Virus record (IMG/VR): IMGVR_UViG_3300043372_000548
Coordinates: 1 to 54,738 of that record
From: a virus
Taxonomy: Duplodnaviria; Caudoviricetes
Reading direction: 5' to 3' (one strand)
Length of the DNA stretch: 54,738 nt
In this document: in pieces, positions 1 through 47,253 of the stretch
Numbering within the stretch: position 1 is the stretch's first letter
How the letters are laid out: each line of letters opens with the position of its first letter
Program-made: the position numbers and the translations under genes
Notes under the pieces: model-generated
Told to the model about the DNA's origin: nothing
The model's input: the letters and a program-made list of their open reading frames with translations, nothing else
The model's database searches: none

Positions 1-1197
1 ATGGGAGACGCGACTATTTACAAGCATCCACGCACGCCTTATTGGCAGGCTCATTTTCTGGTTTGGGACTCGGCACACCAACGATGGAAAGCTAAGACGG
101 CTAGCACTCGGTGCAAAGATGAGGCTAAGGCACTGGAGATTGCTCGCGAGTTTGAGCGGCTGTCTTTGGTGGCGTCTGGACAGTCGGGACAGACACGGGT
201 TACTCGCGATTTTACCATGAATGTCCTGAACGATATTCTGCGCATCTCAGGACACCGCGAAGTGCAAGACACGAAGTCCTGGAAAGAGTATTCAGAAAGA
301 TGGCTGGCCGCGATGGCGCGAAAGGTGCCGCAGTCGCTAAGCAAGTCGTCGCTGGAGCTTTACAAAGGGCATGTGAAAAAGTTCACGGCTTTCTTGGGGA
401 AGGATGCGACTTTGCCGATCAACTTTGTGACGACTGAAAAGATTCAGGACTGGTATTTGGCTGGATCTGCCAACGGGCTCAGCGCGACGACGCTTAATAG
501 CGATTTGCGCACCATTCATACCATTTTCAAGCGCTGTCTGGCGGAAGGTTACATCTCGCTGAATCCCTGCGCTTTGATCGACCGTGAAACGCAGACAGGG
601 AATAAGCGCACGGATTTCACGAGTGATGAAATCAAGACGATCACCGATTACCTGCAAGGGCAGCGTGGTATGGAGGATTGGCTGACGGTTTGGCTACTTG
701 GGCTTTGCACGTCTCAACGTCTAAGCGATTGCGCGAATGCGAGCCGGGCTCATTTCTTGGTGCAGCCTGATTTCTGGATTTGGGAACTGACGCCGAAAAA
801 GACGAGCAGGTTCAAGAAAAAACTGCGCGTGCCGATTGTCGAGCCGTTGGCAGGCCATCTGCGGGAGCTTTGGAAACGTCCTTCAGATTCATTGTTTTTG
901 GCCCCTTCATTGGAGGGTCGCCTGACGAGCAATCTGTCTAAAGCCTTCGGTAAGATATTGGATGATGCTGGAGTTTCTAGGGGGATGCAGGTTAAGAGTG
1001 GCGCTGGTCAGAATTTCGCTGCCAAATCATTTCACTCGACCCGCCACACTTGTAATTCGCTCCTGGCAAACGCAGGGGTGCCGATGGACATTCGTCGAGC
1101 GATTACAGGCCATGCGGACGATGTCACCAACATGATTTACACTCATTTCTCGGACGAGAAAAAACAAGAGGCTTTGGCGTCTGCGTTTAAGTTTTAG
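1..1197 (+). CDS. int: Tyrosine recombinase / phage integrase
   Basis: Catalytic residues R (SQRLSD), K, HxxR (FHSTRH), H (TGH) and Y (MIYTH); arm-binding-like N-terminus and SAM-like core. Confidence 0.95.
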   Translation: MGDATIYKHPRTPYWQAHFLVWDSAHQRWKAKTASTRCKDEAKALEIAREFERLSLVASGQSGQTRVTRDFTMNVLNDILRISGHREVQDTKSWKEYSERWLAAMARKVPQSLSKSSLELYKGHVKKFTAFLGKDATLPINFVTTEKIQDWYLAGSANGLSATTLNSDLRTIHTIFKRCLAEGYISLNPCALIDRETQTGNKRTDFTSDEIKTITDYLQGQRGMEDWLTVWLLGLCTSQRLSDCANASRAHFLVQPDFWIWELTPKKTSRFKKKLRVPIVEPLAGHLRELWKRPSDSLFLAPSLEGRLTSNLSKAFGKILDDAGVSRGMQVKSGAGQNFAAKSFHSTRHTCNSLLANAGVPMDIRRAITGHADDVTNMIYTHFSDEKKQEALASAFKF

Positions 1198-1461: not shown

Positions 1462-1488
1462 ATTTAGCACTTAGGCCTGCTGCTAAAT
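1462..1488. promoter_or_regulatory. Palindromic site ATTTAGCA-N11-TGCTAAAT (copy 1 of 3)
   Basis: Same arms and spacing recur at 41359..41385 and 41474..41500. Confidence 0.6.
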
Positions 1489-4400
1489 CATGGCCTCAGC
1501 AAAAGCTGGGACCGTGATTTAATCTTCTGATACTCGCTCATCGCCCTGTCCAATTCGGCACGGGCCGGACCGGTCAGGCTGGCGCGAAAGCGTTGCTGGT
1601 TTTCTTTCCCACTGATGATCATAAGCGGGTTTTTGTAAAAGAGCAGACGCTGCACGTCCTGACCGTTTTGAATAGGTGCCCCAAATTCCATCAACTTCTT
1701 TTTCAGGTTAGCGATGGCTGTTAGGTTAGGAGTGTCCTGGGCTAATTGCGAAAAGAGAGCACTGCGCGCGCGGCTGGTCGGTGTCGTGCTACCAAAGTCC
1801 ATGCCTTCCGTTGTTGGTAGCTTGTTGGCTTTACGCCAGTCGTCAGCGATCCGGTAGAGGTCGGGCACAGCATTCCGCACATCCAGTCCTACCACGGCAC
1901 GGGCCACCGCTTGCGTAGGACTGCGGGTTTCTAGCGTTTTACCCGTGCTACGGGTGCCAGCATTCAGAAGCGTTTGGAAACCGGTGCCACCGGGCACTAA
2001 AGGAGGTAGCACGGTTTTAGCGGCATTGTCTAGGCGAGCGGCAATCTTCTCGCCGGCAGTCATGTTATTCTCGACAAACGTGCGATTCCCAAAAGCGTCT
2101 TTCCCTGTCATCTGCGCATAGAGCAGGCTACCAATAGGCCCAGCGGCCACGAGGCTGCGGAGTGTCTTCTGCCACCAATCTTCGCCATCTCCGCCTTCGA
2201 CACGGTTACCCAAGAAATCGACGAATGGATGCACGGCGGAAATGTCAAACTGCTGGATCTGTCCCTGGTCACTGCGCACCGGCAGCAGCATGGAAAAAAG
2301 AGGCATCCCCTCCAGCGGCGTCGGTCCAAGCAGCTTCCCAGCTTTCCCGCGCATGTCCTTCTTCAGTTCTTCCAGGTCGTCGTCATCCAGTCCCAACGCT
2401 AAGGCGCTCAGGAAAGTGACCAGCGACGGCACCGAGAGGCCGGCAGCCAGCGCAATTGGGCGCTCCTTCAGTGCATTGCCAAAGATGCGGATGGATTCAC
2501 GGTAGAAGCCCAAGAACGGCATCGCCGTGCGTCCCAGCAGTTTTAGCGTGCCGGAGGTGCCACCATCGAAATACGGGAACCACTGGCGGACGTGGGCGGC
2601 GGATTTTTCAGGAGTCAATCCCATGCTTTGAGCCTTCAGGTAAGCAGCCAGCTTGAAGACCTCATCTTCCGCCTGGTAGGCATTCGCAATGTGGTTGTAG
2701 CTTTTGCTCAATGGATTCTTTGCCCATTCAGGGACCAGTTTACCGAGAGCCTTCCCGATGCCGAGTAGAGCGTCCGGTTTGCCGTCGTCTTGGATCGTGG
2801 CAGGGTCGGGTAGGATCTGTCGCAGAGTTTGGCGCAATTCAGCACTGACAAAGTCGGCGCCGAGCACACCGTTTTCATAGGCCTCTTGTAGAGTGCGTCC
2901 GCCATCGCGCAGCGCGCTCAGAGCCTGGCGGTAATAGGTTAGATTGCCAGGGTTCCAGACGGACGCACCAGCTAGCTGACTGAAAAAGATATTGCCGAGC
3001 ACGTTACGCACATGCGTCCCAGGATTCAGCACCGTCTTGCCAGTTTTCCACCAACCCATGAGGGTATCATAAAGCCGAAGAGCCGTGTTCGGTGACTCAA
3101 TCATTTCCAAGAGTTGTCCAGCGATGTCATCCTGCACAAATTTTCCTGCCAGCCTACCAAAGCGGGCATTGTCTGGGATCTCCGTAAAGTCTGCTACCTG
3201 CACGTCTGAAATCCATTCAGGTTTGCTGGCCACAAAGTTGAAGAACGCCGCCGTGGAGTTATCATGCACCATCTGAGCCATGTAGCGGGAAATTGAGTAA
3301 ACAGGGTCCATGATCAGGCCGGCATCCTCTTTTTCCTGCACACTCAGCGGGGCCATTTTCTGGAAACGGTAACGTTGAGCGCGCGTCAGCTCCTTGATGC
3401 GTCCGCGCAATTCTTCGGGCAGTTTGGCCGGTGCGCGCAGATCGGCCAGGGTCAGTTTCTTATTCTGACCACCGCGCATTTGCAGCGTATCCAGCACGTT
3501 CTTAAGGATGAAATCCTCATAGAAAGCGTCTCGCTGCCCCTGATTGCGGAAGCGCCATTGATTGCCCTGCCAGTTTACAAGGCGAGGCTCCCCGCCGGCG
3601 TCCTTGTTTTCTCGGTCGCTAATGTGCCAGGCCGTCGTGCGCTGCGCGGTAATGTCGCGCAGTCCCAGGCGGAAGCGTTTAGTCAGGCTCTTTTCCCGCT
3701 GCACATCCTCCTTGTAGTAGTGCGGCATGTAGCCTTCGCGCAGGTTTTCAAACGTCTCCAAAGACATGCGGCCTTGCTTTACTGCTTCAGTGCCTTGCTC
3801 GATGAGCATGTCCCGTAGCCGTTGCGCGAGTGCTTGCAGTTCTGCTGGCAGACCCGAAAGCGGAGCTTCCCCCGTCATGGCCAGATACATTTTCTTCCGC
3901 CAAACCGGATTTGCGGAAAACTCAGCGGGGTAAACCAAGTCGGAGAACTTCGGATTTCCCGACAGAGCCCGAACAAGGTCCATAGCCTTCTGGCTACCTA
4001 TGGCCGTCTTAATTTCCATCTCACGCTTAGCCGCGGCCACTTCACGCGGCAGAATGCTATCCGGCATAAATTGACCTTTGACCGCTTTCAGTGCAGCCAG
4101 AAAGGGCTTGGCATCCTCCGCCCCTTGCCATTTAGCAACGGTTTCGGATACACCGACCTTGTCATCAAGGTGACGCGTAAGAGCAGCCATTTTGGCCGAG
4201 ACATGGCGGTCCAAATGATTCCAACCTAGCGCGGCGAGCGGGGATGGAGTAGTAGTGCCTTTAGCCAGTCCCATGCGCCGGCGTTCCGTTGCCCACTCTT
4301 CAAACGCGGCCACGCTAGGAAACTCGGCAATGCTACCGGCTCCTTTCCAGCCTGGCGTATAGTTTTTCAGGTATTCCGAACGAGCAGCCACCGCATCACG

Positions 4401-7400
4401 GATGTCCACACCGAGCACGACTTTATGCTCATCAAATTGGCCGGCTGTGTCCATCTGATTGACCACAAACACCGGCCCATTGTAATCCGCCGGCGTGCCG
4501 GGCTGGATGTAAATATCGATGTGGTCGCCATCTTTGCCCTGCGTGCCTCGGATGTAACCGTAATGGTCATGCAGTCGAATGCTCCATTTTGTCCCATCTG
4601 GATCGGTGCCAGAGCGCACGCTGCCAGCGGGATTCTCGATGGAAATGTCCAGTGGTCCCAGATTAAAACGACCGACTTTATAATTGCCGGCTTTTTTCTG
4701 CGCTGCAGACGGCTCAGGTGTTGAGTTAAGCGGGGATGTGGCTGCCGTTTGAGCAGCGGCATCGAGGGAGTTAGTGGTCACAACACGTTTCTTGCCCGCA
4801 AACAGCCTTGCACTTCGATCTCCTAGCGATTGAGCTTCTTGAGTGGCCTGTTGCACGAGAGCCCCAAGTCCTTTGACGTTGCGCAGAGTGTCCTGGGTAA
4901 TGATGCCAATGACGGGATCATTGATGCGACCGGCTCCTTGATTATCGCCCACAAGGTTGTCGGCGTGCAGGTCCAGAACCAACCATGGGCGCCCCTTGAC
5001 CACGGTGATGTAGGCTCGTGGAGCGTTGTAAGTTATCAGGTTGGTAGGAATCTCCATGATCCCAGAAGCACGACGCGCGGCGGCGTTGCCTGAATTGTCA
5101 ATGAAAGCGTCTTGGCTGCCGATGCCAGGATTCGGACTCAGCGGTTGCTTCAGGTAGATGTGTCCTTGCGGACCAATCGCGGCAATTTCGGTCGGCGTGC
5201 CGCCAAAGTCAGACATGACGGCAAGACGTACGCCAATGGCGCGGGGATTCTTGGCAGGCTGGAAAGACCAGTCGAGCCGGTTCAGACTGCTGTGTCCCAC
5301 ATGTGGCCAGATACCGCCGGCAGGGTTGCCACGACCGTCTTGCAGACGCTTGTAAATTACGCCGTTTTCACGATCCAGATAAACGATGGATTCCACTCCG
5401 TCCGTGTTGGCGTTTAAAGCCTGGATGTCAGCTTCCTGGGCTGCCGTGATCACCGGCACGTCAAAAGCCGCACCGAGGCGCTTGGCTAAATCCGGTCCTG
5501 GGGTCCAGTCGAAGTCTTTGCGCGCAGCGGCACTTCCCTGCCGGAGGGGTCCGTCTTCAGCGACGCGGGCGAAATGGACATCGCGTATCGCGGATCCTTG
5601 TTCAGCGGTAACTCGTGATCCTCGAATCGACGATTTTCCGGCAGTCCGGCTGTCCAGTTGATTGGCTTCGGTGTCATCCCCCATCATCGGCGCAGTTTGG
5701 CCTTTTGCAAGGCTGGAGACCGGTTGCTCCATCAGGCCCATCTCAACAAAGCTCATGTTTCTATCCGTGAAAGGTATTACAGCATCCACAAAGCGCAGAC
5801 CTGAAGATTTACCCATCTCCTTGAGATGTCTTACAAGGCGGTTTTGCTCGTCGCTTATACCGTTATCTTGGCCATTGTTTTGCGGAAAACCTACCAGGAA
5901 GCCATAAGCGCCTTCTCTGGCCGCGCCAAAGATAATACGCTGTGCCACCTCGGCGTTTGTGCTTGATGCAGGAATGCGTTCAACGGCCCGGACAGCCAAT
6001 CGTGTATCCACAAAAAGCACATGCAAGTGGTCAGGGTCAGCGGTGCGCAGTGTTGCGAGATACGGTATTACTGCGAGAGGGTTATTTCCATAAAAAGTCG
6101 CATTGGATCGGCCCGTCGGCAGCACTTCCCAGTCAGCTAGATTTCCCATTTCTGGCTGCGCGGGAGTAGGTAAGATTGGCAGCGTAGGTTTAGTCTTGCC
6201 GGACGGTCCTTGGCCGTTAATAAAGCCGCTCTCACGGTAACTGTAATATCTTTCACCGTTAGTAACAACATGGTCGATTAACGGAAGTCCATAAATAAGG
6301 CCCATTTCACGAAACGTGCGGGTGATTCTATTGTCAGCGTCGCTGGGGGTTGGGTCTCCACTTGGGTGGTTGTGAGCAATGAGCCATCCCGCTAGTTTAG
6401 TTTTCGGGTTGGCTAACTTTGCACTAGCCAAAACCCCAGCAATGCTTTTTGGGTCTGCAATAGTTTCGTTCAAGCTACCCACATGAACGATTTGACTGTG
6501 AACGACCTGGTTAGAGTCGTCCACGACAGCAATTTTAAGAGTCTCAAAATAAGGAGTGCGAACAGCAAGATTAAATGCCGCAAAATCGGCGGCGGTTTTA
6601 ATTACAGCACCTCGTATATCAAAGCTCGGTATCTGCCGGCTTGTAAATTCCTGCAAGATAGTAGAGAGAGTATCTTTCTCTTGAAACGCCTCTCTAATTG
6701 CGCCGACGTTTTGGGAAACTAACCCTCTCCATTCCCGCTCAGCACGTTCTCGCAGTTTGTCGAGTCGTCCACTGTCCCGAACATTTCCTGCGGCAGAGGG
6801 TAACTGATAGGCTTGAGTGGAGGCATTGGCTGCGGCGCGGATGGCGCGCTTGGCGGCTGGTTGCTTATTAGCGGGGACGTTGACATTGGGTAAATTAAGG
6901 TAGCCTTGAATGTAGGAATCACTCAGAGGGTCTTTAAACCCATTTTTTGGCAACGCTCTTTTTCCTGCGCTGTAAGCTTGTGATTGTCCACTTGTCGCGT
7001 CAGTGCGTGCTCTGGCAAGCTCAAAGAGTCGTTTGGCTTGATCGGCACTGCCGTCAATGGCACGTTCAGCTTTGTTAAACCATTGCTTGTAGGAGTCATT
7101 GAAAAGACCATACATCACAGGTTGGACTTCTTCAAGCGGCTTCGTAAGTAGCATAGAGACCTTCTGACTAAGGCGCTCGATGTCACGCTCGCTAGTCTGG
7201 CGCAGGTCGGACGCTGCAAGCGTCGCCACACCAGCCACAGGAATACCCTCTTTCTCAAGCATGGCACGCATTGCTAGCCAACTTTCGCCAGTATTGTGAA
7301 TATCTTCTACCAGCCAAATAGGGCGGCCTGTAACTTGGCGTAGATCATTCAGATCTGCATCGGGCTGGTATTCAACAGGGTCAGACATCTTAGCCCAAAA

Positions 7401-10400
7401 AGTGGTCTTAGCCTTGGCTTCACGTTGGGCAGTCGGAACCGCATAATTACCGCTGGCAATAGTAGCACCGGACTGAGCCAGACGCTGAGCCAGGCGGAAC
7501 GGCAGCACATTCTTCCCGCTGGTAGATGGCATCGGCACCAGCACAGCGTTTTTGGGAATGCTGCTAAAAGCCTCGGGCCGGTAGAACTGTTCAATGATGT
7601 TGTCGGCTTGCTCACTATTAAATCCGCCGGCAGTCCATGCGTTTTTGGCGGCTTGCAATTCAGCAACGTTTTTGCTGGAGGCCAGTAAGGGTGTAGTTTG
7701 GCCTTTGGCAAGGGATGGGCTCGCAGATGATTCAGCCGATTCGGTGGCGGTTTCTGGCGGTGAAGACTTTTCCCGCAGACGGGCATCCACTTCCTGAGAT
7801 TCGAGTTCGAGAGCAGCTAGTTTTTCCGCTTCTGGAAACGTGCCAATCGCGGCCAGTGTTTCCCGTAGTTTTTCAGCTTTGGCGGCGTCATCGGCCAAAT
7901 TTTGGCGGGTGCGCTGCACGGTGTCTTGCAAATCAGCAGGCAGACGGCGGAGATTATGAATCAGGCTACCAGCGCCACTGAATTTAATCAGATCACGGCC
8001 TTTATCATCCAGAACGGCCCCAGCAGTGCTGCTGTTTGGCATGGTGATGTAGATGTTTAGCGGCACTTCCTGCCCGTTGATGGTCAGGCTAGCAGGTGAC
8101 TGCGTCATGCCACGGCGCTCTAGGCGCTTGGAGGTATCAAGCAGCCAGTTGTCTAGCTTGGCGGTCACGGATCCCTCTTTGCCTGCGGTGTCGATTACCA
8201 GCCCTCCAAACTCATAGACGGCCTTATCTGAAATATCCGTATCTTCTTTGACTCCTTCCGGTTTGGGGGCTGTGCGGGTCCACAGCTTGGCGTATTTATC
8301 GGCTTCTTCCTGGGCGGCTGCAATGGCGCTATCCCCGTAGCGGAGATTGGTTTCTAGTCGTGATAGACGGCTGCGTTTGCCAGCCAGTTCATTCGTAAAG
8401 GCTTCACTTTGCAGGCGTAAATCTTTGATTTCTTTTTCGAGTTCGATGCGGCGAATGAAGTCAGGATCTCCGAGGGTTCGGGCGGCCATTTCGGCCATAT
8501 TGACCGCTACGGGGTCGGTTGGATCATCAAACGTATCCTGCATTTCCTCTCCCATGAGAAGCTGGGTGATGAAACGCTGCTTACGGGCAAGTGTACCGTA
8601 AATGGCGCTGTCCATGCTGCCTTCGGTGCCGTAGTTGACGACTTCTACCTCTTCATTCCAAGCGGGTTTTCCTTCCACCTTCTCGGCGTGCAGGTTTCCT
8701 TGCCGGATAATACGGCCATTTCGCTGCTCCATCATCGCCGGCGTAAAATCACGCGGCGGCATGAGGTGATGAACCGCTTTTAGACGGGTCTGAATGTTGA
8801 CACCAACGCCCAAAAGCTCGGTGCTACCCATGATGATACGAATCTCGCCGGCATCGACTTTTTCAAAAAGCGCGGCCTTAGCCGTGTCCGTCATGCCAGA
8901 CTTCATGAGGTGAATCTCTTTCTCAGGCACGCCAGCCGCCACGAGCTTATTTTTCACATCGACATAAAGATCAAACTCACCATCCCCACCGTATTCTGGG
9001 AAGGGATGCCCAGTGAAAGGCATCAGATACTCCATGCTAAAGGGGTTCCGCAAATCACTAAAAATGATCTGGGTGGTTTTGTTCTTTGCACCGGCCTTGT
9101 AGATCTCGACGACACGACCCACGGCAGTATTCACCTTACTGCCAGGATCATCGGGCAGGTTCGGAGAGAGCAAGCGCGGATCTAGGGCGGCGGCGATGCC
9201 TGCTGCCATGGTCTGAATCGGCACGGCAGTAAACTCTTCTTTCTCGTCAGGTGCCGCGTTTTTCCAAAGCTCATTTACGTTGCGGGTCCAAGCATTGAAG
9301 CGGTCAATGCTTTCCGTCGCGGGCACAATGACCATCTCAGGCTCTCCCCCTTTGATCTTGGGCACATCCAGCCCTAGACTTTCATTTCCGAATGCCACAT
9401 CAAACATGGTGCGGACCATGGTAATCAAAGCACTACCATTCTGGAACTTGGCAAAACGGGTTTCCATTTTTGGGGTTCCACCCCAGGCCATTTCTGCTTC
9501 GGTCACGGTCTGCCCGTAGCTGGTGGCAAAGTCGTCAAAGTTATGGATGCCAAAATCTTCCAGTACATCAGGAGCCATGAACTGCATCATGATGTAGGCT
9601 TCTGCCATGCTATTCTTGATCGGCGTGCCCGTGGCGAGGAAGATGTTCTTTCCACCGGTGCGACTCTGCACGTCACGGCATTTCAACATGAAATTGATAG
9701 CGCGCTGGCTATTCCCACTGGCTGGCACGCCTTTCACGCGGCCCATGCGGGTAATGATGGGCAGGCTCTTGTAATTGTGAGCCTCATCCATGATGAGCGC
9801 GTCAATACCAAGATCTTCCCACATGACGGCGGTGTCTTGGCGAGCTTTAAGCTGGTCCAGCATTCCTTGACGGCGTTCTTTGAGGCGTTTCACCATGCCT
9901 TCGAGGTCGCGCACCTTGGCCTTATCCTTTGTGGAGTTCACAATAGCCACAAGTTCCTCAATCTGACTGTCCATATAAGCTTTGACGGCGCTCTCTTTGT
10001 TCGAAATTAGGTCAAACTGGGAATGGGGAAGGATGACGGCATCCCAGTCACCCGTAGCGATCTTAGCCACCAGCTTTCGCCGATTCTGGGCTTGGAAGTC
10101 AGACTTGGAAGGCACCAGCACCTTAGCGCCAGGGTAGGCTTTGAGGTAGGACTTGGCAAACTGGCCAAGCGTGGCGTTTTGCACCACGATCATAGGTTTC
10201 TTAGCCAGTCCAAGCCGGCGCATTTCCTGTGCCAGGATAATCTGGTTAAAAGTTTTTCCGCTACCGACTCCATGCGCCATCATGCCTCGCCGAGTGGTCA
10301 GGAAACGTGCGATCACACCCCGCCGATGCGGCTTGGTGTAAACGTAGTTGGTATTCAATCCAGGGAACTTCAGGTAAGCGCCCGTGTGTTTTGGCGTGAC

Positions 10401-13400
10401 GTACGAGTTATTGGACTCGTTAAAAGCGTTCTCGGTGGCTTCCCAAACGGGGACCGATTGGCCTTCAATCTCGACCATGTTGTCACTTGTCTTGACAAAG
10501 TCGATAAATGCTCGGCGCATCTTATCCAAAGCTGTCTTGGCGGCTGCGGTGTCCTTTGCATTAAAGGTCCGGTTGTCACCACTGCCGTCATAGACTAGCG
10601 GCTCTGTCATATCGAGCGCGTGTTTAAACAAGGCAGCGGCTTTCTTCCGTTCGGAACCGTGATCTTCCGTCTTGTAGAGGCCAGTGCCGGAAATGATCCA
10701 GGAGTTACCAGCGGGAATGTATTCAACGGTGTCACTTCCCTGAAGCACTTCTTTGATGAAGGCATCATAGACTGGCGCGGGAATCCAGCGTGCCCCCAGC
10801 ACGGGAGAAATTCGGGCAATCTCTTTCCGCTCAGGCTGGGCAGCGGTGAGAGCTTCTACGTTTTTAGTGAATCGTGGATCATCTTTGGCAGCTTCTTGAG
10901 CCGTCTCTAGTTTTTGGCGGACGTTCCCAGAAAGGTATTCTTCCCCTTGCTCCAAAAGGCTGGTATCAGGGTTGCGGAAGATGTCAGGGCGCAGCAAAGC
11001 CTCCGCCTCAAAACGCTCTACAGTGCTGCCGAGCAGGCTGGCAGCATAAGCCGAGTCAATCGTTCCTCGCCATGCCAAGGCCAATTCTAAAGCTTCATCG
11101 GTGGTCTGTGCGGAGGTAGGCTCAACGATAGGACGACCAATGCGTTTGCTGAAGATTTCCGCTTTTTGGTAGGTATAAGACTTCTTGCCAGTCTTGGAAT
11201 CGACGGCGGTTATTTCTGTCTCCAGCGCGGCAGTCAGCGGATAACTTGGGTCACTGGTCAGGTGCTTATGGCTATTGGCAAAACGGCGTGAAATCGGTTT
11301 ATGCCGCATAACGTGGTTGTCATAGAGCACGTTTAGGTTACGGCGCAGGCGGTCCAGTCCCGTTTCCTCAAAGGAATTGCTAGTTTCGGCCTGCACAAGT
11401 TCTTCCGCAGCGTCTGCGACTTTGCGCCATGACCGCCACGTCTTCACCATCTCGGCATTGGTTGACCACTCCGCTTCTTCCATGCTGCCGTCTGGCTGCA
11501 CTTCGTAGAGCTTGCCATTCTGTTCCTTAAACGAAAAAGGTTTATCATCACGATCTGCCAGCACGGTGGCTTTAGCCTCTGCCGTGTTCTGCCGCCCCAT
11601 CACATTCTGGGGTAAGCTGGGAATGAGGGCATCGAGGGCGCCAGTGACATCCAAGGTATCAGGAGCCACAAGCGCGTAACCGCCGGCTCGATACATCGAC
11701 GACGCGAGCGTATGTGTGCCAAGCGCGTTCTGAGGATGGTTTACAAAATATTCGTTCACCATGATCGGCGCGGAGACGTCGATGGCTTTCTTGTCGCCTT
11801 TAAAGTATTCTTTACCCACGATGTCACCTGTGCGGACCGCTTCACGGCGAAGTTCATCGACTGTCTGGTCTTTCCCCTGCACTAAGGTAATGGTTTGTCG
11901 GCCTACTTCTGTAAGATTGCGCCATGCTTCGCCTTGAAAAGGCGTCCCGTCAGGCTTGCGCAAGATGATAATGTCCGTCGTTACTTCGGTCCCTGCATTT
12001 TCTTTAAAGGCATTGTTTGGCAGGCGAAAAGCCGCCACAAGATCCCCTTTGGAAGCAATGAAATCCCGTTGTTTGACGTTGTTCTGCATCGTCGATTCCG
12101 ACGTGATAAAAGCCACCAAGCCACCAGGCTTTACTTTATCCAACGCATGGGCAAAGAAAAAGTTGTGCAGGTTCAAACTAGGAAAACCTTTTTTTGATGG
12201 GCCGGACTCATGGAAAGGAACGTTGGAAATAACCAGATCCAGAGAGCCATTCGGGATACGGGCACGTTCAAAGCCGAGGCCTGTCACTGTCCGCGATTCA
12301 TTGGCAGAGTTTTCATTAACGACTGCCTCTGGGTAAAGCTTAGACAGCAAGCGGGCGCTGAGGTCATCGAGCTCTACGGTCTGCCACTGCGTTTGATCCG
12401 CCAGTGCCGCCGGTTGCACACCGAGGTAATGGCCATTCCCCGCGCTGGATTCAAGAGCTCGCCCACCTTTAAATCCAAGCCTATCTACCATTTTCCACAT
12501 GGCGCGGATAAACGGCACGGCGGTGTAGTGAGCATTAAGAGTGCTGGCGCTGGCGCTAGAAAACTCATCTGCAGTCATGCTTTCTTTCAACAGCTTATGC
12601 AGCGGACGGTGATTCTTTTCCCAGCTTTTCAGCCAATCTGGCATGTATTGGCGGCGATACTCGGGAACGCCGTCCCAATATTCTGAAATGTCTTTTTCGT
12701 ATTTGTTATTAAAGGCCTCTTTGAAAGCGCCCCAGCCGGTATAAGAAGCCAGTGTTTTCTTTTCTTCAGGCGTGGCGTTTCGGCGCTCATCTTCCAGCAC
12801 TTTTAGCAAGCGGATAGCCTCAATGTTGGCGGTGACCTTGGCTCTTTCTGTGGCCGGTGCTAAATTCTCAACGTTGTCAGGAACTTCAAAGTTACGTTCG
12901 GGACTTCCTACATCTGGGCGTAGGATTTTGGTGGCATTAGGATTTCCAGCATCTCCAGGCAATCTGGGCATATCTGCGTTAGTGCGGCCTTTAATGTCAT
13001 TTCCTGCTGAGTCGTCAGTTCTAGGTCCGCGAGTTGTTGTTCCACCATCGGCATTAGTTCCGCTGCTTCCGCTGCTTCCTGTGAATCCGGCTCCGTCTCC
13101 AAAGAGAGATCCTTCCCCTCGGGAAGTTGAGACCATGCCTGTTTGTCCAAATAGGTCACCAAGGCCTCCGGTTGTTTCAGCAGACGAGGCAGGGCGTCCA
13201 GTCCGAGCAGGGCGTGGAGCACGTTGGGAAGTTGGTCGGGGTCGCGCATCGGTGAAATCTCCAAAAAGGTCAAGGGTTTGAGCTTGCTGAACCTTCGCCT
13301 CATTCTGGGCTGGGGTCAATAATGTCTCAAGGCCGAGGCCGGCGTTGAAAGAAAAAAGGTCGGGAGTGTTATCGGTTGCGGTGCGGCCTTTGGTTAAAGA

Positions 13401-16400
13401 TGGCGTTTGGCTTTCGCGGTAGCCGTCATTAGCAAACTCATCGAAAGCGGTGACTATCTCAGAAACATCAGCGGCATCGGGGGCACTGTCAGCAAGATCG
13501 GCGGGTGTCGTATCGCGCGGCGTGCGGCGTGCAAGGTAAAAATGGGCGATGTCTTGCAGTGAATAGCCTTCTGCTGCACCAATGGCGAGCGGTGTATTCA
13601 TGCTGCCTACGGGGAAAGGCGAAGGCTTACCGGTGGCTTGATTGAGCTTTCCAGTAGCAGCAAGTGCAGCAAACTCTTGCACGGTCATGTCATTGACCTG
13701 CGCGAGCATTTGAGGCCAGTCTGGCGCTACTTCTTCGCCGGCGGCGGAACGCTGAACTTCCCGTAAGGGAGTTTGTCTAGGGCCGTTTGTATCTCTTTCT
13801 GCTGCGCTATTTCGGCGGCTGTTATTGGTGGAGATTTCTTCATTGGAACGACTGTCTAAGATACCCCAAAACTGGGGATTTACAATGGAAAACTGCGGGC
13901 CTGGAGCCGTTTTTTCAACAATGGCGTGAGGTTTTGGCGGCGTGTTATCGTACACATCCGCCAGATCCACGAGCGGAATGTAAGCCTTCACCGCGGCGTT
14001 GAAGGAGCGATGAGCCCCCATCAAAACATCGACCGGCACCCAGCGGCCTGAATTTTGCCCACGCAACACGGCGCGGGTAATGGCTTCTCGGGGGTCAATA
14101 CTGACGCCAATGAGATGAATCTTTAAACCCGAGGCTTTCCAGCGCTTGAATAACACCTTGGTTTTTTCTGCATTGGCTAAAGTGCCGTCGAAGACAATAT
14201 TGTAACGGGCGGGTTTCCCCGCAGGAATGGCGCGATCCATAAGCAGCGTGGTAATCTGGCTGCTTTCCTCATGCACCGTGGCAGCGGCTCGGCCATCGCC
14301 GGCTAGCTTTAGCTCATGATACTCAGGAATGAGTTCTTTGATGTCGTCCGCATTGATCTCGACCGTGTTGTCGGTGTTGACTGTGCCTCGCTTTTTAAGG
14401 ATGCCTAAAATGGTGCTTTTACCAGCGCCACCGCCACCGCCCATGGCGTAGAGAGTGGGCTGCGTGCCAGCAGGCACAGGCGTAGCACGCTGCATAAAAT
14501 ACTGCACCACGGCGCGCTGAAAAGCAGCCCGTGGAATGGTTCGATCAGCGGGAAGGATTCCCGTCACCACCAAAGGATGATCGGTACGCAAGGTGGCACT
14601 GGTTTTGGTTTCTGTCGGCTTCAGGAGGTCATCATCCGCCGGCAGCGTCTTCGGCATGTTGGGGAAACCGTATTCATTCCACCCATGCGGCCAATCGGCC
14701 CCAAACTGCTTTAACAAACGCGGATCAGTCGCTTTACTGCCTGAATATAAGGCCGGCGGCTCAGGAGTAGGTTGTGGCTGTGCTTGGGAGGCGACTTGAT
14801 TGTCGAGTTGGTCAATGCGGTTTTGGCTACGCGGTGTCTCAATGATGAGATCAATCGGGTAAACACTGCCGTCTGTGGCGGTAATGAAGTTTTTAGGCAG
14901 CGCATCAGAAACGACAGTGCTGCCGTCCCACCACGCACCTTCATAAGCGCGCTGGAAGCCTTTCCGGCGCATATAGCCGTCAATCTCTTCCAATGTAGAT
15001 GGCCGGCCTCTCTGCCAGCGCTGCGAAGTGACAAGTCGGGGACCTGATTCACCAGGGAACTGAATCCAGCCTTCGATGGCGATGTCATCCCCAAACATTT
15101 CGTTTTGGCGGGCCATCTGCTCTAGATAACCACCCAGAGAACCGCGAGCACCAAATTCGCCGGCGTTGGTGAGCTTAATAGCCGTGTCTCCGCGTGGGTC
15201 TCGGTGACGGTAAACAGTGTGTTCTTGCCCTTTTAAAAGGTCTTCTTCAGGTATCTGCCGTACGTGTTGACCCCATGCGCCAAGGTCTAGCTTTGGGAGC
15301 GCTTCCAAGCCTCTCTGGCTTGCTGAATAAATACCGGCTCCTCTGCTACCACTTCCGCTCCCACCTTCACTCCTAGTGCGCGCATTGCCGCTGTCTGAGC
15401 TTTCTCGTCCTCCGGTGACTGGTAAGCCCTGGAGTTGAGCTCGCGCGATTCGCGGGTTCCGGAACGAATTAGAAGTTTGGATTCCATAACGAGCTAATGT
15501 AGCATCAATCGTTAAAGATTCAACGGGTTTGATCCATTCTGGAACAACTCTTTTACTGCCTGAGAAGAGGCTTAACTGCTCAGAACCAAGCGCCTGTCCT
15601 GTGGTCTGGGTTTCCAAGCGCAGATCTTCCGCAGGTTTGGAAATGCGGGTGGTGGCGTCATCAAAAAGGAAAGTCTGACCGAGTGACATCTCGGCAGTTT
15701 CCAGCGCTTTGGATTGGCCTGGGGTAAGAGTCTGCTTAGCCGACAGGGTGCGGTAAAGTTTCAGTGCGGTGGCGGGTGGCAGTGTGGGGGTTTTAGTCCC
15801 AGAAGCTAGCCTTGGCTGCGCAGTCTCTTGGCTAGAAGTCTGGCCTGTAGCCAGGGCAAACAATTCTTCCCGTGTCGGGCGCGGTTCGTCACCAAACAAA
15901 CTCTGCTGCTTGGGGTCGCCAAGACTAAGCACTGCGCCGTTGTAGCGGGCGAAGGACTCGATCATGTTTTTGGCAGAGCGGGCGTTTTCGTCCAAAAATC
16001 GCAGGATGCTAGCTTGGATGCTATTGGGCGGAGTGTAGCCGGCTTCGTTGACCAGTCCTGGCTCCAAGTAAGTGGACACCGGTTTCCCTGCTTTGCGTGC
16101 TTTGGCAAAGTAATAGGACGCCCATGCCACATCAGCAGAAATATCCATATCAAACAGATCACCCTCATTCATACGGGCCTTCATGTCTGCAAGGGCGGGA
16201 GCAATACTGGAGAGGACGCGGCTCAGATTTCTATTTTCCTCTTCAACAGATCCCACCATAGTGTCGATCATCGCACGGGCCTGCTTATCTTTGCCATAAG
16301 CATAGGCCAGCAAAGCACGTTGGATGCGCTCCATACCATCGGCCCCAAGTCCTCCGTCATCGTCGAAAAATCGTTCTTTTTGGGAATCGTCGTGGACAAG

Positions 16401-19400
16401 GTTTCGCTCAAACCAGCGGAAAAAGTTCATGTTAGAACTACCAGGAAGGCTTCCGTCCTCAGTAGCGTTAATCAGTGCAAGTCCAGGCGATAAAGCGGCA
16501 GCGTCTTGATAAGCTTGATCGACCGGCCCCATCTCAGCGTTGCCCATCTCGGCCAATTTACGCAGGTTTACATCCTCATCGATGATGTAGATAAGCTTGG
16601 GTTTTTGAATCTTTTGCAGAGCTTCGTTGGAGATACCAAAGCTGGCAGCCTGGGCTCGCAGATCCTTTTCATACTGAAGGATATTTGGAAAGTCCGACGG
16701 ATTCGCATAAGCGTGATCGATTGCAACGTCACGATGGTTGCCAATGATGACATGGTGGTTACGTGATACTTTAGCGGCACCATCTCGGATGCCGCCGGCG
16801 GTGCTAGAAAGCCTGGAGAAATCCGCGTTGGTGGCGATTTGCTTCCGCTTCTGGGCTGAAATGGCGACACCGTCAGTCTTGCGAGGCTGAAAAACCTGCG
16901 GAAAATCTGTTCGGCTCTGGCCCGCAAAATTCATGCTGGCAATGGTCGCCGGACTGTTGGCTTCAACCACGGCGGGCCGCAGGCGGACCTTTTGTCCATT
17001 CGGAGCGGTGACGGTAATGGATGTGCCAAGGGCCGCGCCTGGGAAGATCACCTCCAAGGGCCGCATGTCCGTAGGTGGTGCGTCCACTGACGGGGCGTTA
17101 AGATCAGCACTTTCGTCGTTGGGCGATGTCTTGCCCCCTTTAGACTTTACTGATGCCACCGGCGTCTTTTTCGCCATAGGCTTGAGCGCCGGTAGCGTCG
17201 CCAGTCGAGAAGGATCACCTTTGGACCGTGCCTGCATTTCAAGCACCAGATTGCCCACTTCCTCGATCATGGTTTCCAGATCGGCCTGAACTTCAGGGCT
17301 GGCTTTGCTTACCAAATCTCTCAGAGCGTTTCCGAGATCGTTGAGCATGTCCATAAGCCACTGGGCTAAAGACTTATCTTGCGCGGCAGCCTCAGACACT
17401 TGACCGGCAAACTTCCGGTCTTGAATCATCATGCGCAGGAACTCGTTAAATAACTGCCACTGCTGCCCAGCGCGCATATCACCAGGCATTTGGCTTGGTT
17501 GCGTCTTGTTTAGAATATCGATTGCGTGATAGCTCTCCCAGACTTTCTGGCGGAGTTCCGGTGTCAACGAATTCCAACGTTTCACCAATTCGCCCATGCC
17601 ATACTTGCCTGGGTTTTGCTTGGCTAAGGTCAGCACCGCAGCATGAATGGTTTCCTCGACCATTGTGGCCGTAATACCTGCTTCTGCGTCGGTAAGGTTA
17701 CTGAGTTCTTTCAGCACGTTGGAAAGGTCCAAGGCCAGCACGGTTTGACCGTCGATCACGTTAACAGCCAAAGCGGAGCCACCTAGCAGGCTTTTAGCAC
17801 TGTCTCCTAGTGCCAATGTTCCAAATAGGGCATGATTCTCTGCTAAAGCACGTTCAAGGATGTTTAATGTTTTGCGCGCCTGTGGCCGCTTGCTTGCAGG
17901 TAACGAGGTTAATACCTGGAGACGTGCCCGACTCCATGCCGAGTTACGGCGAAGGTCAGCTGGGCGCGAAGGTGTTTCTGCCACGACATCGGTATCCGCT
18001 ACAGGCTCACCGGCGGCATTTACTTTTCCTTTTGCTAGACTGCCACCACGGGCAGCCGTCTCAGCCCGTGATAACCAGGGGAGAAAGCTGAGCTTATACT
18101 GCTTGTTTAAATCGCTGTTGTTTTCAGATGACTGGGCCACAAACTCAGCCGCCAAGGCAGCCGCTTCTTCCTCGGTGTAAGAACCGTCTTTGACGATCTT
18201 GGCCGCAAGTTGTTCCGCGCGCTCCTGCTGAGGAAAGCTAAGTTTAGGGGCCGTTGTCGATGGCTGCGCTTTTTTATAAACTGTTTCCTGGTTAGAAGTA
18301 GCGGGCGCGGCAGCGGCAGGCGGAGCCACCACCGCGCCCTGGGTCGTATCCTCCCCACCACTCGCAGGGGAAGCGGCACCTTGGGCCGATGATCCACGGG
18401 CAGACTGTTCTTCACTAGACGCGGGAGCCTGGCTAGGGGAAGGGTCTGCAACAGGGGAAACAGGCGCGGTTTTAGCGGCGGACTGGCTAGCCAAACGCTG
18501 GCTAAAGTCCGCAGGCACACGCAGAGGGTTGTCTTGGGCGCGGGAAGTGCTCAGACTGCCAGAAAGGCCAAGTTCACGCAGAATCTTGGGGTAGTCTTTG
18601 GTTATGGCTTGCTCGACATAATTTTCACCAATCACACCCTGCTTGTTGACCAAATACTGCGCCACTTGCGCAGCCTCAGCAGGGGCCAAACCAAGGTCTT
18701 GGAAATGGGTTGTGAAGTCGCGAATGCGCTGGCCCTCTGGGGTAGACGTATCCACCCCAGATGTGGCGCTGTCTGATGCAGCCACTGGTTTGGATTGTGC
18801 GCGTGCAGTTATTGGCGCTTCAGATTGGGTGGCCGTCGGTATTTTAACGCCATGATTGGCTGGAATAGCTGCCGCTACTTCGGGCAGATTTTGTGCCAGG
18901 CTAGCACGATAAGCCGGGCTAATCGTAGCCACACCGGCGCTATCTACTTCCAGCACCTCAGGACCAGTGTAACCTTTTAGCCGTTCGATCTGCCCTTCGG
19001 GCAAAGTGATGCCTTTGCTATTTCGTCCTGTCCAGCCGGCAGCATTGAGTTGGGTTTCTTCCAAGTCCTCAACACTACCACCCTGGGCCACCGCTAAGGC
19101 CACGCTAGCGCGCTCCTGCATACCAGGAATGTCCGCAGGATTTAAATCCTCGCGATTACTTAGCTGATCAATAGACGACCAAGCAGCAGCAGCCACTTCA
19201 GGCCGCAGAGCAGGGTCCGCAGGCTCCACAGGTGCCACTTGCGCGACGTTGGGTTGTGTCGCGTCACGAGGCGCGCGGGAGCTTTCGCGGATGGCCTGAA
19301 TGCCTTCTCCTGCCCCACCAAGTGCAAAGATAGCTGCGGAGAGTTCAGGCAGGCTTTCTACAAATTGAGCAAGCGCTTGCGGAACCGATTCGCCACTGGC

Positions 19401-32878: not shown

Positions 32879-33769
32879 TTAAACTGAAATTTGTAGAATC
32901 AATCCGCCAATTGGCATTGTGTAAGTACTGGCAGCCAGTGCTGGCACAGGCGTAGAATAAGCTAAATCCCCAAAAAAGAAAATTTCGTCTGAAGAGGAAG
33001 AGTTTGCACCTACCGTTGCACCAGTCGTTACAATCCCAAAATTACTGACTGAAGGGCCAGTATTTGCAACGGAGGAAGTAAAATCAAAATCAATTGCAAC
33101 AGCGTTTGTAATAGCTGCACCAGTAGCTGGACTCCAAGTTGCATTTGGGACGGGTGGCCTGCCATTGGGAGTGATGAGCATGGCTGGATTAATCTCGTTC
33201 AAGATAGTAAGTGCTGTAGATCCGCTACCTGTCATGAGAGTCATTTTAAGAGCCCCAACCGACATTGACACACCGCGAAACAAGTAATTTAGCACGCGCT
33301 GTTCCAGACCTGCTCCAGCACCGCCACCGAGGGCGTATTCCAAAGATCGAACAGGGAATGTTGGCTGCTGATAGACTCCGATAATGGTTGCTTGAGGAAG
33401 TTCGTCATACCACAAAAGATTACCACCTGTGCTTGCATCAAAGATACCATAAGCAACGATTTGGCCCCATGGTTGGGTTGGGCGCGGCCACGCAATGACC
33501 TTAGCGTTGTAAAGATGATTATTAGAACCCATAGGAATCAAAGAGGCATTATCATTAGCTCCTAAAGTCATTTCAAAGTTTCTAGCTGCAACAGTAGCAG
33601 TCACTAAGACGCGAGAATATGAGCCACCCGAAACTTCCAATCCGCCTCCTGATGCATTTGGACGCTCAGTAAAAAGAGCATAATGCAAATTTGACGTGCG
33701 AACCCAGTTTGCCGGTCCGCGTAGAACTCCATCAAGAATTTTATTGGCTAAGTAAGTGGTGATAGGCAT
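32879..33769 (-). CDS. Virion protein with two tandem tail-fibre-like (Gp80-type) domains
   Basis: YLANKILD..LRG...ALFT..P...EVSGGSY.R...GIFDASTGGNLL, then a second copy LEQRVLNYLFRG...ITNAVAIDF...FGI...FFGDL. Confidence 0.7.
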   Translation of the reverse strand: MPITTYLANKILDGVLRGPANWVRTSNLHYALFTERPNASGGGLEVSGGSYSRVLVTATVAARNFEMTLGANDNASLIPMGSNNHLYNAKVIAWPRPTQPWGQIVAYGIFDASTGGNLLWYDELPQATIIGVYQQPTFPVRSLEYALGGGAGAGLEQRVLNYLFRGVSMSVGALKMTLMTGSGSTALTILNEINPAMLITPNGRPPVPNATWSPATGAAITNAVAIDFDFTSSVANTGPSVSNFGIVTTGATVGANSSSSDEIFFFGDLAYSTPVPALAASTYTMPIGGLILQISV

Positions 33770-46380: not shown

Positions 46381-47253
46381 ATGAGTGATTTCCTAAATAC
46401 CACCACCGAGGCCGCGACCATTGCCAGCCTTGCCCAATCAGCCACACAAGCTAACTTCTTCATCGAGGAAAATATGCCTGTTTTCAGCTTTAGTGACCAA
46501 ACAAAAGTCGTCTTTGCTGAAAAATTGCTTCCGACCCCACTGCGGAACTCTGGCGCTGTTTTTCTGCTTACCCCGACGGACCTAGTCCGCTACCTGAAAA
46601 ATCAAACCCAGTCAAAGGATGCAGGTCTTGAAGAAACCTGTTGGAATCCGGTCATTTTTGCAGACCGTGCCAAACTTACGTTTACAGCCATCCTGAATTA
46701 CCCAACGGCCCAAAGGCCAGGTTGGGCCGATAACCGCGCCATTGTGACTCTTACAAAGTCTCGTCAACTTGTGACGTGGCAGGGTAAAAACGCGCAGAAG
46801 ATGAGCCAAGAACAGTTTGCGCTGTTCCTTGAAGAGAATATCGAGGATATTCGCACGCCGACGGGTGCCCAGTTGCTGACTTTTGCCGAAACATTGGAAG
46901 CCACGCGCACGGAAACATTCAAAAGCAGCATCATCACGAGCACGGGCGAGCAAAAGCTTAGCTACTGCAGCGAGCGAAATGGTGAACAGAGCTCAACGCT
47001 TATTACCCAAATCACGCTTGGTATCCCTCTTTTTGAAGGTGGCGATCGCTATGCGGTGGAGGCCAAGATTTCTCACCGTGTCACCGAGGGTAAACTGACG
47101 TTTTGGTTCGATCTGCGCCACATCGAGCACATCATCGACCGTGCATGGATGGAAGAGTGCTCGACACTTGACGACAATGCGGCCGACTTTGTTCAGATCT
47201 ACCATGGCTCAGCGCCGTCGAAACAAGATCCGTTGAGTCTAAACGGCTTCTAA
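46381..47253 (+). CDS. YfdQ / DUF2303 family protein
   Basis: AILNY, PGWADNRA, W......MSQ..FA.FLEENIEDI, LGIPLFEGG. Confidence 0.85.
   Translation: MSDFLNTTTEAATIASLAQSATQANFFIEENMPVFSFSDQTKVVFAEKLLPTPLRNSGAVFLLTPTDLVRYLKNQTQSKDAGLEETCWNPVIFADRAKLTFTAILNYPTAQRPGWADNRAIVTLTKSRQLVTWQGKNAQKMSQEQFALFLEENIEDIRTPTGAQLLTFAETLEATRTETFKSSIITSTGEQKLSYCSERNGEQSSTLITQITLGIPLFEGGDRYAVEAKISHRVTEGKLTFWFDLRHIEHIIDRAWMEECSTLDDNAADFVQIYHGSAPSKQDPLSLNGF

Follow-up and report, generated by a model that had tools for sequence, protein, structure and literature searches.

A recurrent joint peptide at cassette boundaries of a giant phage polyvalent protein: a candidate processing site

The virus record IMGVR_UViG_3300043372_000548 (Duplodnaviria; Caudoviricetes), which in its complete form of 54,738 bp constitutes the window analyzed here, encodes a giant protein, P0001 (6920 amino acids, aa), from a single open reading frame (ORF). 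A short peptide that recurs nine times along this chain is a true cassette joint, real and family-wide, in what is, as judged from its domain content, a phage polyvalent protein of about ten cassettes. The joint motif is previously undescribed, in a known class of proteins. The joints are, in our tentative assessment (a little short of an even chance), processing sites, for which the zincin-like module in the same chain would be the most likely protease, acting once the protein has been packaged or injected.

The joint peptide in P0001 and its relatives

All nine peptides that an earlier note on this DNA had listed are present in the single-ORF translation where it had placed them (Table 1). 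The same note had described them as a recurring linker, L-x-[KSA]-G, a description that holds for the position and the specific forms of the peptides, which are non-random, and fails for the pattern as such: it has 13 rather than nine matches in P0001 (the additional four at residues 366, 2338, 6601 and 6762), i.e., a chance frequency (10.9 ± 3.2 in global shuffles, with 607 of 2000 shuffles reaching 13). The specific forms are far less expected. LAKG is present in four copies vs. 0.33 expected (reached in 1 of 2000 shuffles), while [SG]L[AT]KG[KQRT][TV] (five copies) and L[AFY][SA]G[STK]K (four copies), two patterns set after seeing the data, are each matched by 0 of 2000 shuffles. With respect to position, 9/13 matches to L-x-[KSA]-G lie within 35 aa of 15 breakpoint clusters (ends of BLASTP alignments to relatives, derived without using the motif), which cover 14.8% of the chain (binomial P = 1.4e-5). 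A site is found near 10 of these 15 clusters, so that the phrase "nearly every domain boundary" proved too strong; the clusters at about residues 41, 1253, 1662, 2838 and 5108 have none. Likewise, the zincin-like and ParB parts share one cassette with no motif separating them, and there is no motif inside the methylase-helicase unit, between PRTase and JAB, or between JAB and JAB. Because these five clusters and the internal boundaries of multi-domain units are devoid of it, the motif marks boundaries of cassettes (functional units) and not every domain boundary. In this way the joints reveal which domains travel together, i.e., PRTase with two JAB domains and methylase with helicase.

The breakpoints of homologues clearly do not ignore the motif; had they ignored it, this would, according to the earlier note, have spoken against its reading. 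A viral contig, G001, encodes a 7282-aa homologue whose alignment with P0001 breaks at window-protein residues 2144, 2235, 2945, 4850 and 5524, i.e., at five of the nine joint sites, with different cassettes between them; at the position of joint 1 it carries LTKGKV. A search with the C-terminal 931 residues yielded 46 further proteins (3876–7496 aa, with varied domain inventories), one of them labelled by its source as belonging to a Verrucomicrobia metagenome-assembled genome (MAG). Across these 47 relatives (48 family proteins when P0001 is included), 154 of 406 homology ends, which are not independent since relatives share ancestry, fall within 10 aa of the nine sites vs. 11.4 expected, and 0 of 5000 random placements reach 154. 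The Zeta module has the motif upstream in 10 of 11 rows.

Enrichment over shuffled sequence, a check proposed in the earlier note, depends on the pattern: the loose form is at chance level in P0001, whereas the fixed family patterns are strongly enriched at junctions. In 321 partly de-duplicated junction windows, L-x-[KSA]-G shows a modest excess (10.9% vs. 6.2%), and the most enriched words are QL.L, L.LF and LAKS. Gibbs sampling of 177 strictly de-duplicated junction windows returned L-[AF]-x-[ASG]-x-[KR] from all three seeds (55, 47 and 66 windows carrying the motif); a second flavour of the motif reads L-A-K-[GS]-x-[VT]. The joints LASGTK, LFSGSK, LYSGSK and LFAGKK of P0001 are of the first kind, and LAKGKV, LTKGRT, LAKGQT (twice) and LAKGTT of the second. 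With both patterns fixed, the 48 proteins contain 405 matches vs. 204 ± 14 in shuffles with the composition of each 50-aa block retained. This excess is wholly confined to within 30 aa of breakpoint clusters, i.e., to junction zones comprising 10.7% of residues (203 vs. 24.5 ± 4.8; none of 200 shuffles exceeded 37), a comparison that is controlled for composition by the shuffles and partly circular in that the patterns were derived from the same windows. The other 40 ORFs of the window provide a background rate of 7 matches in 9493 aa; the LFAGNR of the capsid protein (residue 95) is inside the conserved head-protein fold.

The registration of the motif is exact. Homology starts peak on the motif Leu (284 at offset 0 and 114 at −1) and homology ends peak at +5, +6 and +7 (270, 168 and 205), therefore an element of 6–8 residues is common to both neighbouring cassettes. 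The signal is replicated in a set of 91 proteins of at least 1500 aa found via the zincin-like module only, with 41 matches vs. 14.8 expected in the ten residues from the homology start, 2 vs. 7.5 just past those ten residues, and 224 vs. 182 overall. Upstream of the C-terminal module, widely differing cassettes run right up to the Leu of the joint (RRRMG-LAKGTT, HSTP-LAKSTV, LGDRSAR-LFKSTV, GQMA-LFAASK), and the motif is followed by a Pro/Ser/Thr-rich spacer of variable length and then by the module core. In the relative P0030, LGDRSAR-LFKSTV leads via the spacer straight into the C-terminal module, at the place where, in the window protein, two motifs enclose the InPase cassette. Of the first 50 columns of an alignment that comprises the kinase-like cassette and its flanks (A2), the upstream Leu is the only invariant one; AlphaFold2 applied to A2 folds the cassette confidently and predicts the joint regions on both sides of it to be disordered (predicted local distance difference test, pLDDT, <50 and no secondary structure at residues 5490–5529 and 5818–5837). 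A genome search with A2 retrieved one Verrucomicrobia MAG contig; together with the MAG noted above, this makes uncultured Verrucomicrobia the apparent hosts of the family.

Several further observations concern individual joints. Tandem motifs are present at some of them, e.g., a second motif-like peptide, LLASSK, stands a few residues past joint 6, with similar arrangements in G001 (6348–6359) and P0168; tandem joints may be remnants of lost cassettes or redundant sites. Joint 3 overlaps the peptide EQLSLF, and eQLxLF occurs at the orthologous place in most relatives. This peptide resembles the pentapeptide of the QL[SD]LF type that, within a disordered segment, binds the bacterial sliding clamp (beta-clamp), and it would be a candidate for such binding; further [DS]LF[GS] peptides are found at about residue 2120 and at the start of the DarB-like cassette (2960–3040). 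Two other roles were rejected: that the motif marks an internal translation start or a frameshift signal, as no in-frame start codon or slippery heptamer is common to the nine DNA copies, and that it is a phosphorylation site, as the flavours LAMARK and LAAAAR have neither Ser nor Thr.

Selection acts on the peptide and not on the DNA. The two SLAKGQT copies are, as the earlier note had it, 667 codons apart and share 18 of 19 nucleotides (nt; 5694..5712 and 7695..7713); their Ser codons are TCC vs. AGC, and one Ala codon also differs. The motif Leu is encoded over the nine copies by CTA, TTA, CTT and CTG (twice each) and CTC (once). The genes of the window and of G001 are 64–77% identical in DNA wherever aligned, with no near-identical patches and no sign of a recent mosaic. 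Because the codons vary between copies, and because the G001 gene has no near-identical DNA patches, the conserved entity is the peptide. Moreover, the copies within one protein resemble each other more than expected at motif positions 3 (within-protein identity between junctions 0.375, null 0.180), 4 (0.617, null 0.387), 5 (0.228, null 0.127) and 6 (0.554, null 0.347), with 0 of 1000 permutations reaching the observed values, while position 2 shows no effect (0.342 vs. 0.341); this permutation ignores relatedness, and independent flavour switches are few, perhaps five or six. At position 4, for example, G predominates in the window protein (9 of 10 copies) and S in P0002 (8 of 10), and A is invariant in P0016 (7 of 7); P0034, P0036 and P0037 read LAAA.R. 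In each switch several non-homologous joints changed together. Such concerted flavour is what would be expected of sites read by one shared, co-evolving partner, and not of cassettes imported between lineages. The DNA-level recombination signal that the earlier note had offered as one of two functions is thus poorly supported by codon usage, by the nearest relative and by this concerted evolution at the peptide level.

Cassettes, split forms and genomic setting

Polyvalent proteins (sensu Iyer et al., 2017; PMC5512222) carry two to fifteen functionally unrelated effector domains per polypeptide and are encoded by phages or mobile elements beside virion genes. P0001 has unrelated Pfam and PHROGs domains (Table 1), and its record also holds portal, head, terminase, fibre and integrase genes. 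The PRTase signal in P0001 is weak. The kinase-like cassette has no Pfam match; its confident structural model finds protein and effector kinases (NleH, OspG, HopBF1) as the best Foldseek matches, which are weak (E 0.03–0.08).

Table 1. Coordinates of the giant gene, its joints and modules, and other genes of the 54,738-bp window (residues are those of P0001, in chain order).
Feature	Window position	Strand	Residues	Remarks
P0001, giant ORF	1488..22250	-	6920 aa	Chain ~750 kDa; from ORF list and translation
N-terminal module	18039..22250	-	1-1404	Coiled-coil and Gly/Ala-rich hydrophobic stretches; kept in most relatives
Joint 1, LAKGKV	18021..18038 (core 18027-18038)	-	1405-1410	Between N-terminal module and zincin-like/ParB cassette
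Zincin-like module	17235..17945	-	1436-1672	EETIH at 1532-1536; conserved Glu in NEFLRMM at 1603
ddrB-ParB			1751-1887	Pfam 33.1 bits vs. cut-off 27.6
Joint 2, LASGTK	15792..15809 (core 15798-15809)	-	2148-2153	Breakpoint cluster 2153, 35 ends
EQLSLF peptide	15555-15572	-	2224-2229	Overlaps joint 3
Joint 3, LFSGSK	15552..15569 (core 15558-15569)	-	2228-2233	EQLS just before; cluster 2236
Kinase-PolyVal			2334-2471	Pfam 17.3 bits, under cut-off 27
Joint 4, LYSGSK	14733..14750 (core 14739-14750)	-	2501-2506	Upstream of Zeta-toxin cassette
Zeta_toxin			2590-2756	Pfam 111.5 bits
Joint 5, LTKGRT	13380..13397 (core 13386-13397)	-	2952-2957	Upstream of DarB-like methylase-helicase cassette; cluster 2949
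DarB-like methylase and SNF2-type helicase			~3000-4830	PHROGs DarB-like antirestriction; Pfam Helicase_C 25.7 bits
Joint 6, LAKGQT	7695..7712 (core 7701-7712)	-	4847-4852	Upstream of PRTase-like and two-JAB cassette
LLASSK peptide	7671-7688	-	4855-4860	Motif-like
RadC-type JAB, two stretches			5228-5342 and downstream	Pfam RadC 95.2 bits
Joint 7, LAKGQT	5694..5711 (core 5700-5711)	-	5514-5519	Upstream of kinase-like cassette
Kinase-like cassette	4815-5648	-	5535-5812	Motifs G.E..VY.D...VYK, DLHPDNF, RINDP
Joint 8, LFAGKK	4788..4805 (core 4794-4805)	-	5816-5821	Right after conserved LGDRSAR helix end; upstream of InPase
InPase			5850-5987	Pfam 156.9 bits
Joint 9, LAKGTT	4251..4268 (core 4257-4268)	-	5995-6000	Upstream of C-terminal module; cluster 5999, 55 ends
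C-terminal module	1491..4250	-	6001-6920	Conserved; common to all 46 relatives from the C-terminal search
Tyrosine integrase	1..1197	+		Phage_integrase and SAM-like N-terminal domain; convergent with giant gene end
Fibre protein	32879-33769	-		Gp80 fibre-I domain of Ralstonia podophage GP4 in two stretches, Pfam E 3.9e-31
DUF2303 protein	46381-47253	+		Early region; E 7e-43
IstB/DnaC-like ATPase	48655-49371	+		Early region

The C-terminal module has hydrophobic stretches, no Pfam match in a local search and one weak match among GenBank phage records; its nearest neighbours by language-model features are viral LPD38 clusters (score 0.98), and it is LPD38-like by these features only. Stand-alone proteins of this kind (about 800–1100 aa) exist in other phages, and two of them, P0174 and P0160, begin, by their predicted gene starts, just past the expected position of the motif. 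Other relatives appear to be encoded in two parts. Seven proteins of 1053–1108 aa (P0163, P0164, P0166, P0169, P0171, P0172 and P0173), some of them from contigs as long as 65 kb, carry at the N-terminus a piece of ~45 aa that ends in ...THN, followed by Ser or Thr. An intein-like insert of 342 aa is found in the C-terminal module of P0042 (4507–4848) and P0032 (5522–5862), and its end is similar to this piece. P0058, an N-terminal-half protein, has an IntN-like C-terminus (1719–1798) that is similar to the beginning of the insert (BLASTP E 1.6e-7, with Pfam Hint matches below cut-off at E 0.005). The full insert lies at the conserved WKTGK..NPGTHVRN site, corresponding to about residues 6385–6400 of the window protein, which hints at a functionally critical site. 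These sequence features suggest split-intein joining (trans-splicing) of two gene products into one giant chain. The C-terminal halves with the intein-like start still carry the joint motif before the C-terminal module. Taken together, these split, joined and stand-alone forms provide a lead that a single chain may matter at one stage and separable units at another.

Upstream of the giant gene, on the same strand, are the genes for the large terminase, the major head protein, the portal and the fibre protein with the Gp80 domain. The latter domain ties the virion module to the GP4/phi24B type, despite a capsid protein that has no detectable sequence match among 50,697 GenBank phage records; a search of GenBank phages yielded no cultured relative. 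As it encodes an integrase, the phage is probably temperate.

A candidate protease and the explanations weighed

Our preferred account is as follows. The product of the giant gene would be a polyvalent ejection protein in which cassettes are strung together, with a peptide of 6–8 residues, L-[A/F/Y]-x-[A/S/G]-x-[K/R] or L-A-K-[G/S]-x-[V/T], at each cassette boundary as the head of a disordered spacer. This peptide would be the site of recognition and cleavage: synthesis and packaging would involve a single chain, which would then be cut at its joints, probably by its own [H/E]ExxH...E zincin-like module, and up to nine units would be released, in the capsid or in the infected cell. What would be released are cassettes and not, as the earlier note had put it, single effectors, since several cassettes hold more than one domain. 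Thermolysin-type zincins prefer a hydrophobic residue after the scissile bond, and a cut in front of the Leu would suit this preference. That the motif is cut at all, by which enzyme and at which bond, is what we infer; with this qualification, a processing signal fits the data better than a DNA-level recombination signal. Autoprocessing of polyvalent proteins is predicted, with no site named, in the main text of PMC5512222.

The zincin-like module was called an MPTase-like domain in the earlier note, and a conserved [H/E]ExxH...E module is indeed real, though its copy in the window reads EETIH, has no significant Pfam or Foldseek match and is not specifically tracked by the joint flavour. It occurs in 44 of the 48 family proteins, and a library of 1.84 billion representatives contains 124 proteins that have it, most of them 2000–7000 aa long with the module near residues 1200–1800. 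In the module alignment (A1), E98 and H101 of xExxH and E168 of HEFLRML are invariant, and HExxH is found in 11 of 37 aligned relatives, with EExxH in the rest; a simple pattern count over 134 modules gave 101 EExxH, 25 HExxH and 8 others. The AlphaFold2 model (pLDDT 90.6) has strands at 43–45, 59–64 and 67–72, a motif helix at 87–110 and a Glu helix at 159–175, i.e., it predicts both a Glu in a later helix (as third ligand) and a three-stranded sheet before the motif helix. The same layout (three strands, motif helix, Glu helix) is given for the MPTases of polyvalent proteins in PMC5512222. Of the weak matches in BFVD, the best (E 0.015–0.08) are fragments of polyvalent proteins, and zincin, SprT and MuF-C names appear among the weaker ones, all of these being leads only; the matches in a protein atlas are unnamed viral clusters. 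A profile search of PDB with the module returned designed helical proteins only, a single-sequence locus search found nothing, and a search with A1 among proteins of 456–2000 aa found one fragment. One apparent counter-example with joints and no motif helix, P0033, was dismissed when EEWIH was found about 96 aa upstream of the matched part. P0041 and P0042 have a different HEFWH module, no overall motif excess and a few joints resembling LFAGQ or LFAAR. A complex prediction with the A1 module, Zn and a 45-aa joint peptide (score 0.06, mark 0.32) counts neither way.

A number of observations weigh against cleavage by this module. The first His of HExxH is absent from the EETIH of the window; no Pfam peptidase family was found for 14 module members at E ≤ 5 or for the window copy at E ≤ 1; and Foldseek gave 0 matches at E ≤ 0.001 in both PDB and BFVD. 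A partial Mantel-type test reveals no specific link between flavour and module (partial r 0.109, reached by 77 of 999 permutations), the corresponding values being 0.214 (7 of 999) for the N-terminal module and 0.112 (113 of 999) for the C-terminal module. The four family proteins that lack the module show no motif excess, but one of these is truncated at its N-terminus and the other three are simply the most distant members of the family. Nor is the motif scarcer than expected inside cassettes (about 202 matches vs. about 180); 323 of 514 breakpoint clusters have no match within 30 aa, and some orthologous joints have lost it (e.g., RRRMGPAKP in P0016). Finally, polyvalent proteins already known, the N4 virion RNA polymerase among them, enter the virion in uncut form (PMC5512222).

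Some of these observations would sit well with a docking peptide that is never cut, in which one partner (a chaperone or translocation ratchet refolding the entering chain, or a capsid- or portal-associated packaging factor) reads the motif at the head of each cassette. We hold this to be unlikely, if worth serious attention. Peptide-level selection, concerted flavour and the predicted disorder around the joints suit such a site, and so do a flavour that tracks the zincin-like module no better than it tracks the N-terminal module or backbone, a motif that is not avoided inside domains and the apparent split-intein joining, which shows the importance of a single chain. With its Leu or Phe between basic neighbours, the motif is also loosely reminiscent of Hsp70-binding peptides. 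However, the fast changes at positions 3–6 from lineage to lineage would be left unexplained by a host chaperone, which is highly conserved, a site with only one or two hydrophobic residues would be a weak one for chaperones, and the partners named are candidates only; stand-alone C-terminal modules that start right past the motif are a better fit to the boundary of a separable unit. Cleavage by a host protease or another phage product in place of the zincin-like module is, in our judgement, less probable again. All evidence for a site selected at the peptide level applies to it equally, the lineage flavour could equally follow host lineage, and both the non-canonical EETIH and the lack of specific co-variation with the module leave room for another enzyme. 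On the other side, the zincin-like module is the one enzyme-like part so widely kept in the family and library, always near the same chain position, and no peptidase family was found in the remaining ORFs of the 54.7-kb record. For the latter reason, and since those ORFs carry the motif at the background rate, a prohead protease was discarded as the cutter. The JAB domains were discarded as well, being absent from many relatives that keep the motif; in addition, RadC-type JABs have been argued to have no ubiquitin-tail groove (PMC5512222).

The motif might instead persist through cassette swapping, as a short stretch of homology or the sole tolerated place for crossovers, with no function of the peptide itself, which we regard as improbable. 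Breakpoints that match the motif to the residue, gain or loss of a cassette exactly between two motifs (P0030 vs. the InPase of the window), tandem motifs and the 18/19-nt repeat are all compatible with it, and cassette recombination has been raised for Verrucomicrobium loci (PMC5512222). Yet 18 nt is very short for homologous exchange, codons vary widely down to Ser TCC vs. AGC, and no recent mosaic is seen in the nearest relative; exchange would also mix flavours, while copies within a protein are homogeneous at positions 3–6, and an invariant Leu amid variable flanks points to purifying selection on the peptide. As for chance or generic linker composition, the loose pattern taken by itself (13 vs. 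10.9 in P0001, and its modest junction excess) would allow it, and the junction count of the fixed patterns, the sharp registration and the replication in a second protein set contradict it, making it very improbable indeed. Returning to autoprocessing, its fullest version combines a ~750-kDa chain (ligated by split inteins in some relatives) that would be packaged via its end modules and cut at the joints by its own EExxH/HExxH zincin, the release of up to nine anti-defence or takeover effectors, co-evolution of protease and sites, and freely exchangeable cassettes; this combination as a whole is possible and rather doubtful.

Relation to known systems and implications

Known polyvalent proteins, as described in the main text of PMC5512222, share with the P0001 family the many unrelated effector domains in one huge chain, the context of phage head genes, the domains themselves (ddrB-ParB, Kinase-PolyVal, Zeta toxin, RadC, PRTase, InPase, DarB-like methylase/helicase), a zincin-like module proposed as processor, and a cassette-like variability noted for Verrucomicrobia. 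The differences are a defined joint peptide, its exact registration and concerted evolution, and a module that is outside Pfam models and mostly EExxH. That main text names no boundary motif (the terms "linker" and "boundar" occur 0 times, and "cleavage site" in the reference list only), and our literature searches, which covered the main text of PMC5512222, found no described boundary or processing site for polyvalent proteins.

The nearest analogues of the joint motif are the cleavage sites in polyproteins of eukaryotic viruses, and the pre-toxin elements of polymorphic toxins with their releasing peptidases. Polyproteins of eukaryotic viruses (e.g., coronaviruses and picornaviruses) have the same protease site at every product boundary, the protease within the chain and sites that change with lineage. 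P0001 would be analogous in being one chain with the same short motif at each boundary, as seen in the junction counts, the Gibbs motif and the registration; it differs in belonging to a DNA phage, in being a presumed packaged ejection protein and not a replicase precursor, in a candidate protease that is zincin-like and not a Cys or Ser protease, and in cleavage being putative. Polymorphic toxins (Zhang et al., 2012; PMC3482391) have pre-toxin motifs such as PT-VENN, which are thought to serve processing and to mark cassette exchange, with in-built peptidases releasing the toxin. In both systems a short conserved element stands immediately upstream of an exchangeable cassette. In polymorphic toxins there is one boundary, one C-terminal toxin and an adjacent immunity gene (PMC3482391), whereas P0001 has nine serial joints among virion genes and neither a secretion leader nor an immunity-gene architecture. 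A further related system is gp47 of the structurally related phage phi24B, a giant polyvalent protein of 2811 aa, found in virions in abundance and proposed as an ejection protein (bioRxiv 10.64898/2026.04.10.717836). Common to both are a podophage with a Gp80-type fibre domain, a giant polyvalent protein beside the head genes and a C-terminal module that is LPD38-like by language-model features; gp47 has other domains, and the part of that preprint available to us reports no joint motif or gp47 processing. The preprint describes the capsid protein of GP4/phi24B-type virions as uncleaved.

Overall, polyvalent proteins are widespread in phages and conjugative elements, and their processing has been predicted since 2017, with no site defined in the literature searched. 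Conserved in no fewer than 47 giant proteins and discernible in a broader set of 91, the joint peptide makes this processing hypothesis directly testable, and the nine joints of P0001 offer definite candidate positions at which to ask whether giant injected proteins are cleaved into separate effectors. The motif is also of practical use as a guide for dividing giant ORFs into their functional units. If it is a docking site, it would point to an unknown packaging or translocation step of very large ejection proteins; if the joints are indeed points of exchange, giant proteins of this family would represent a plug-and-play effector array.

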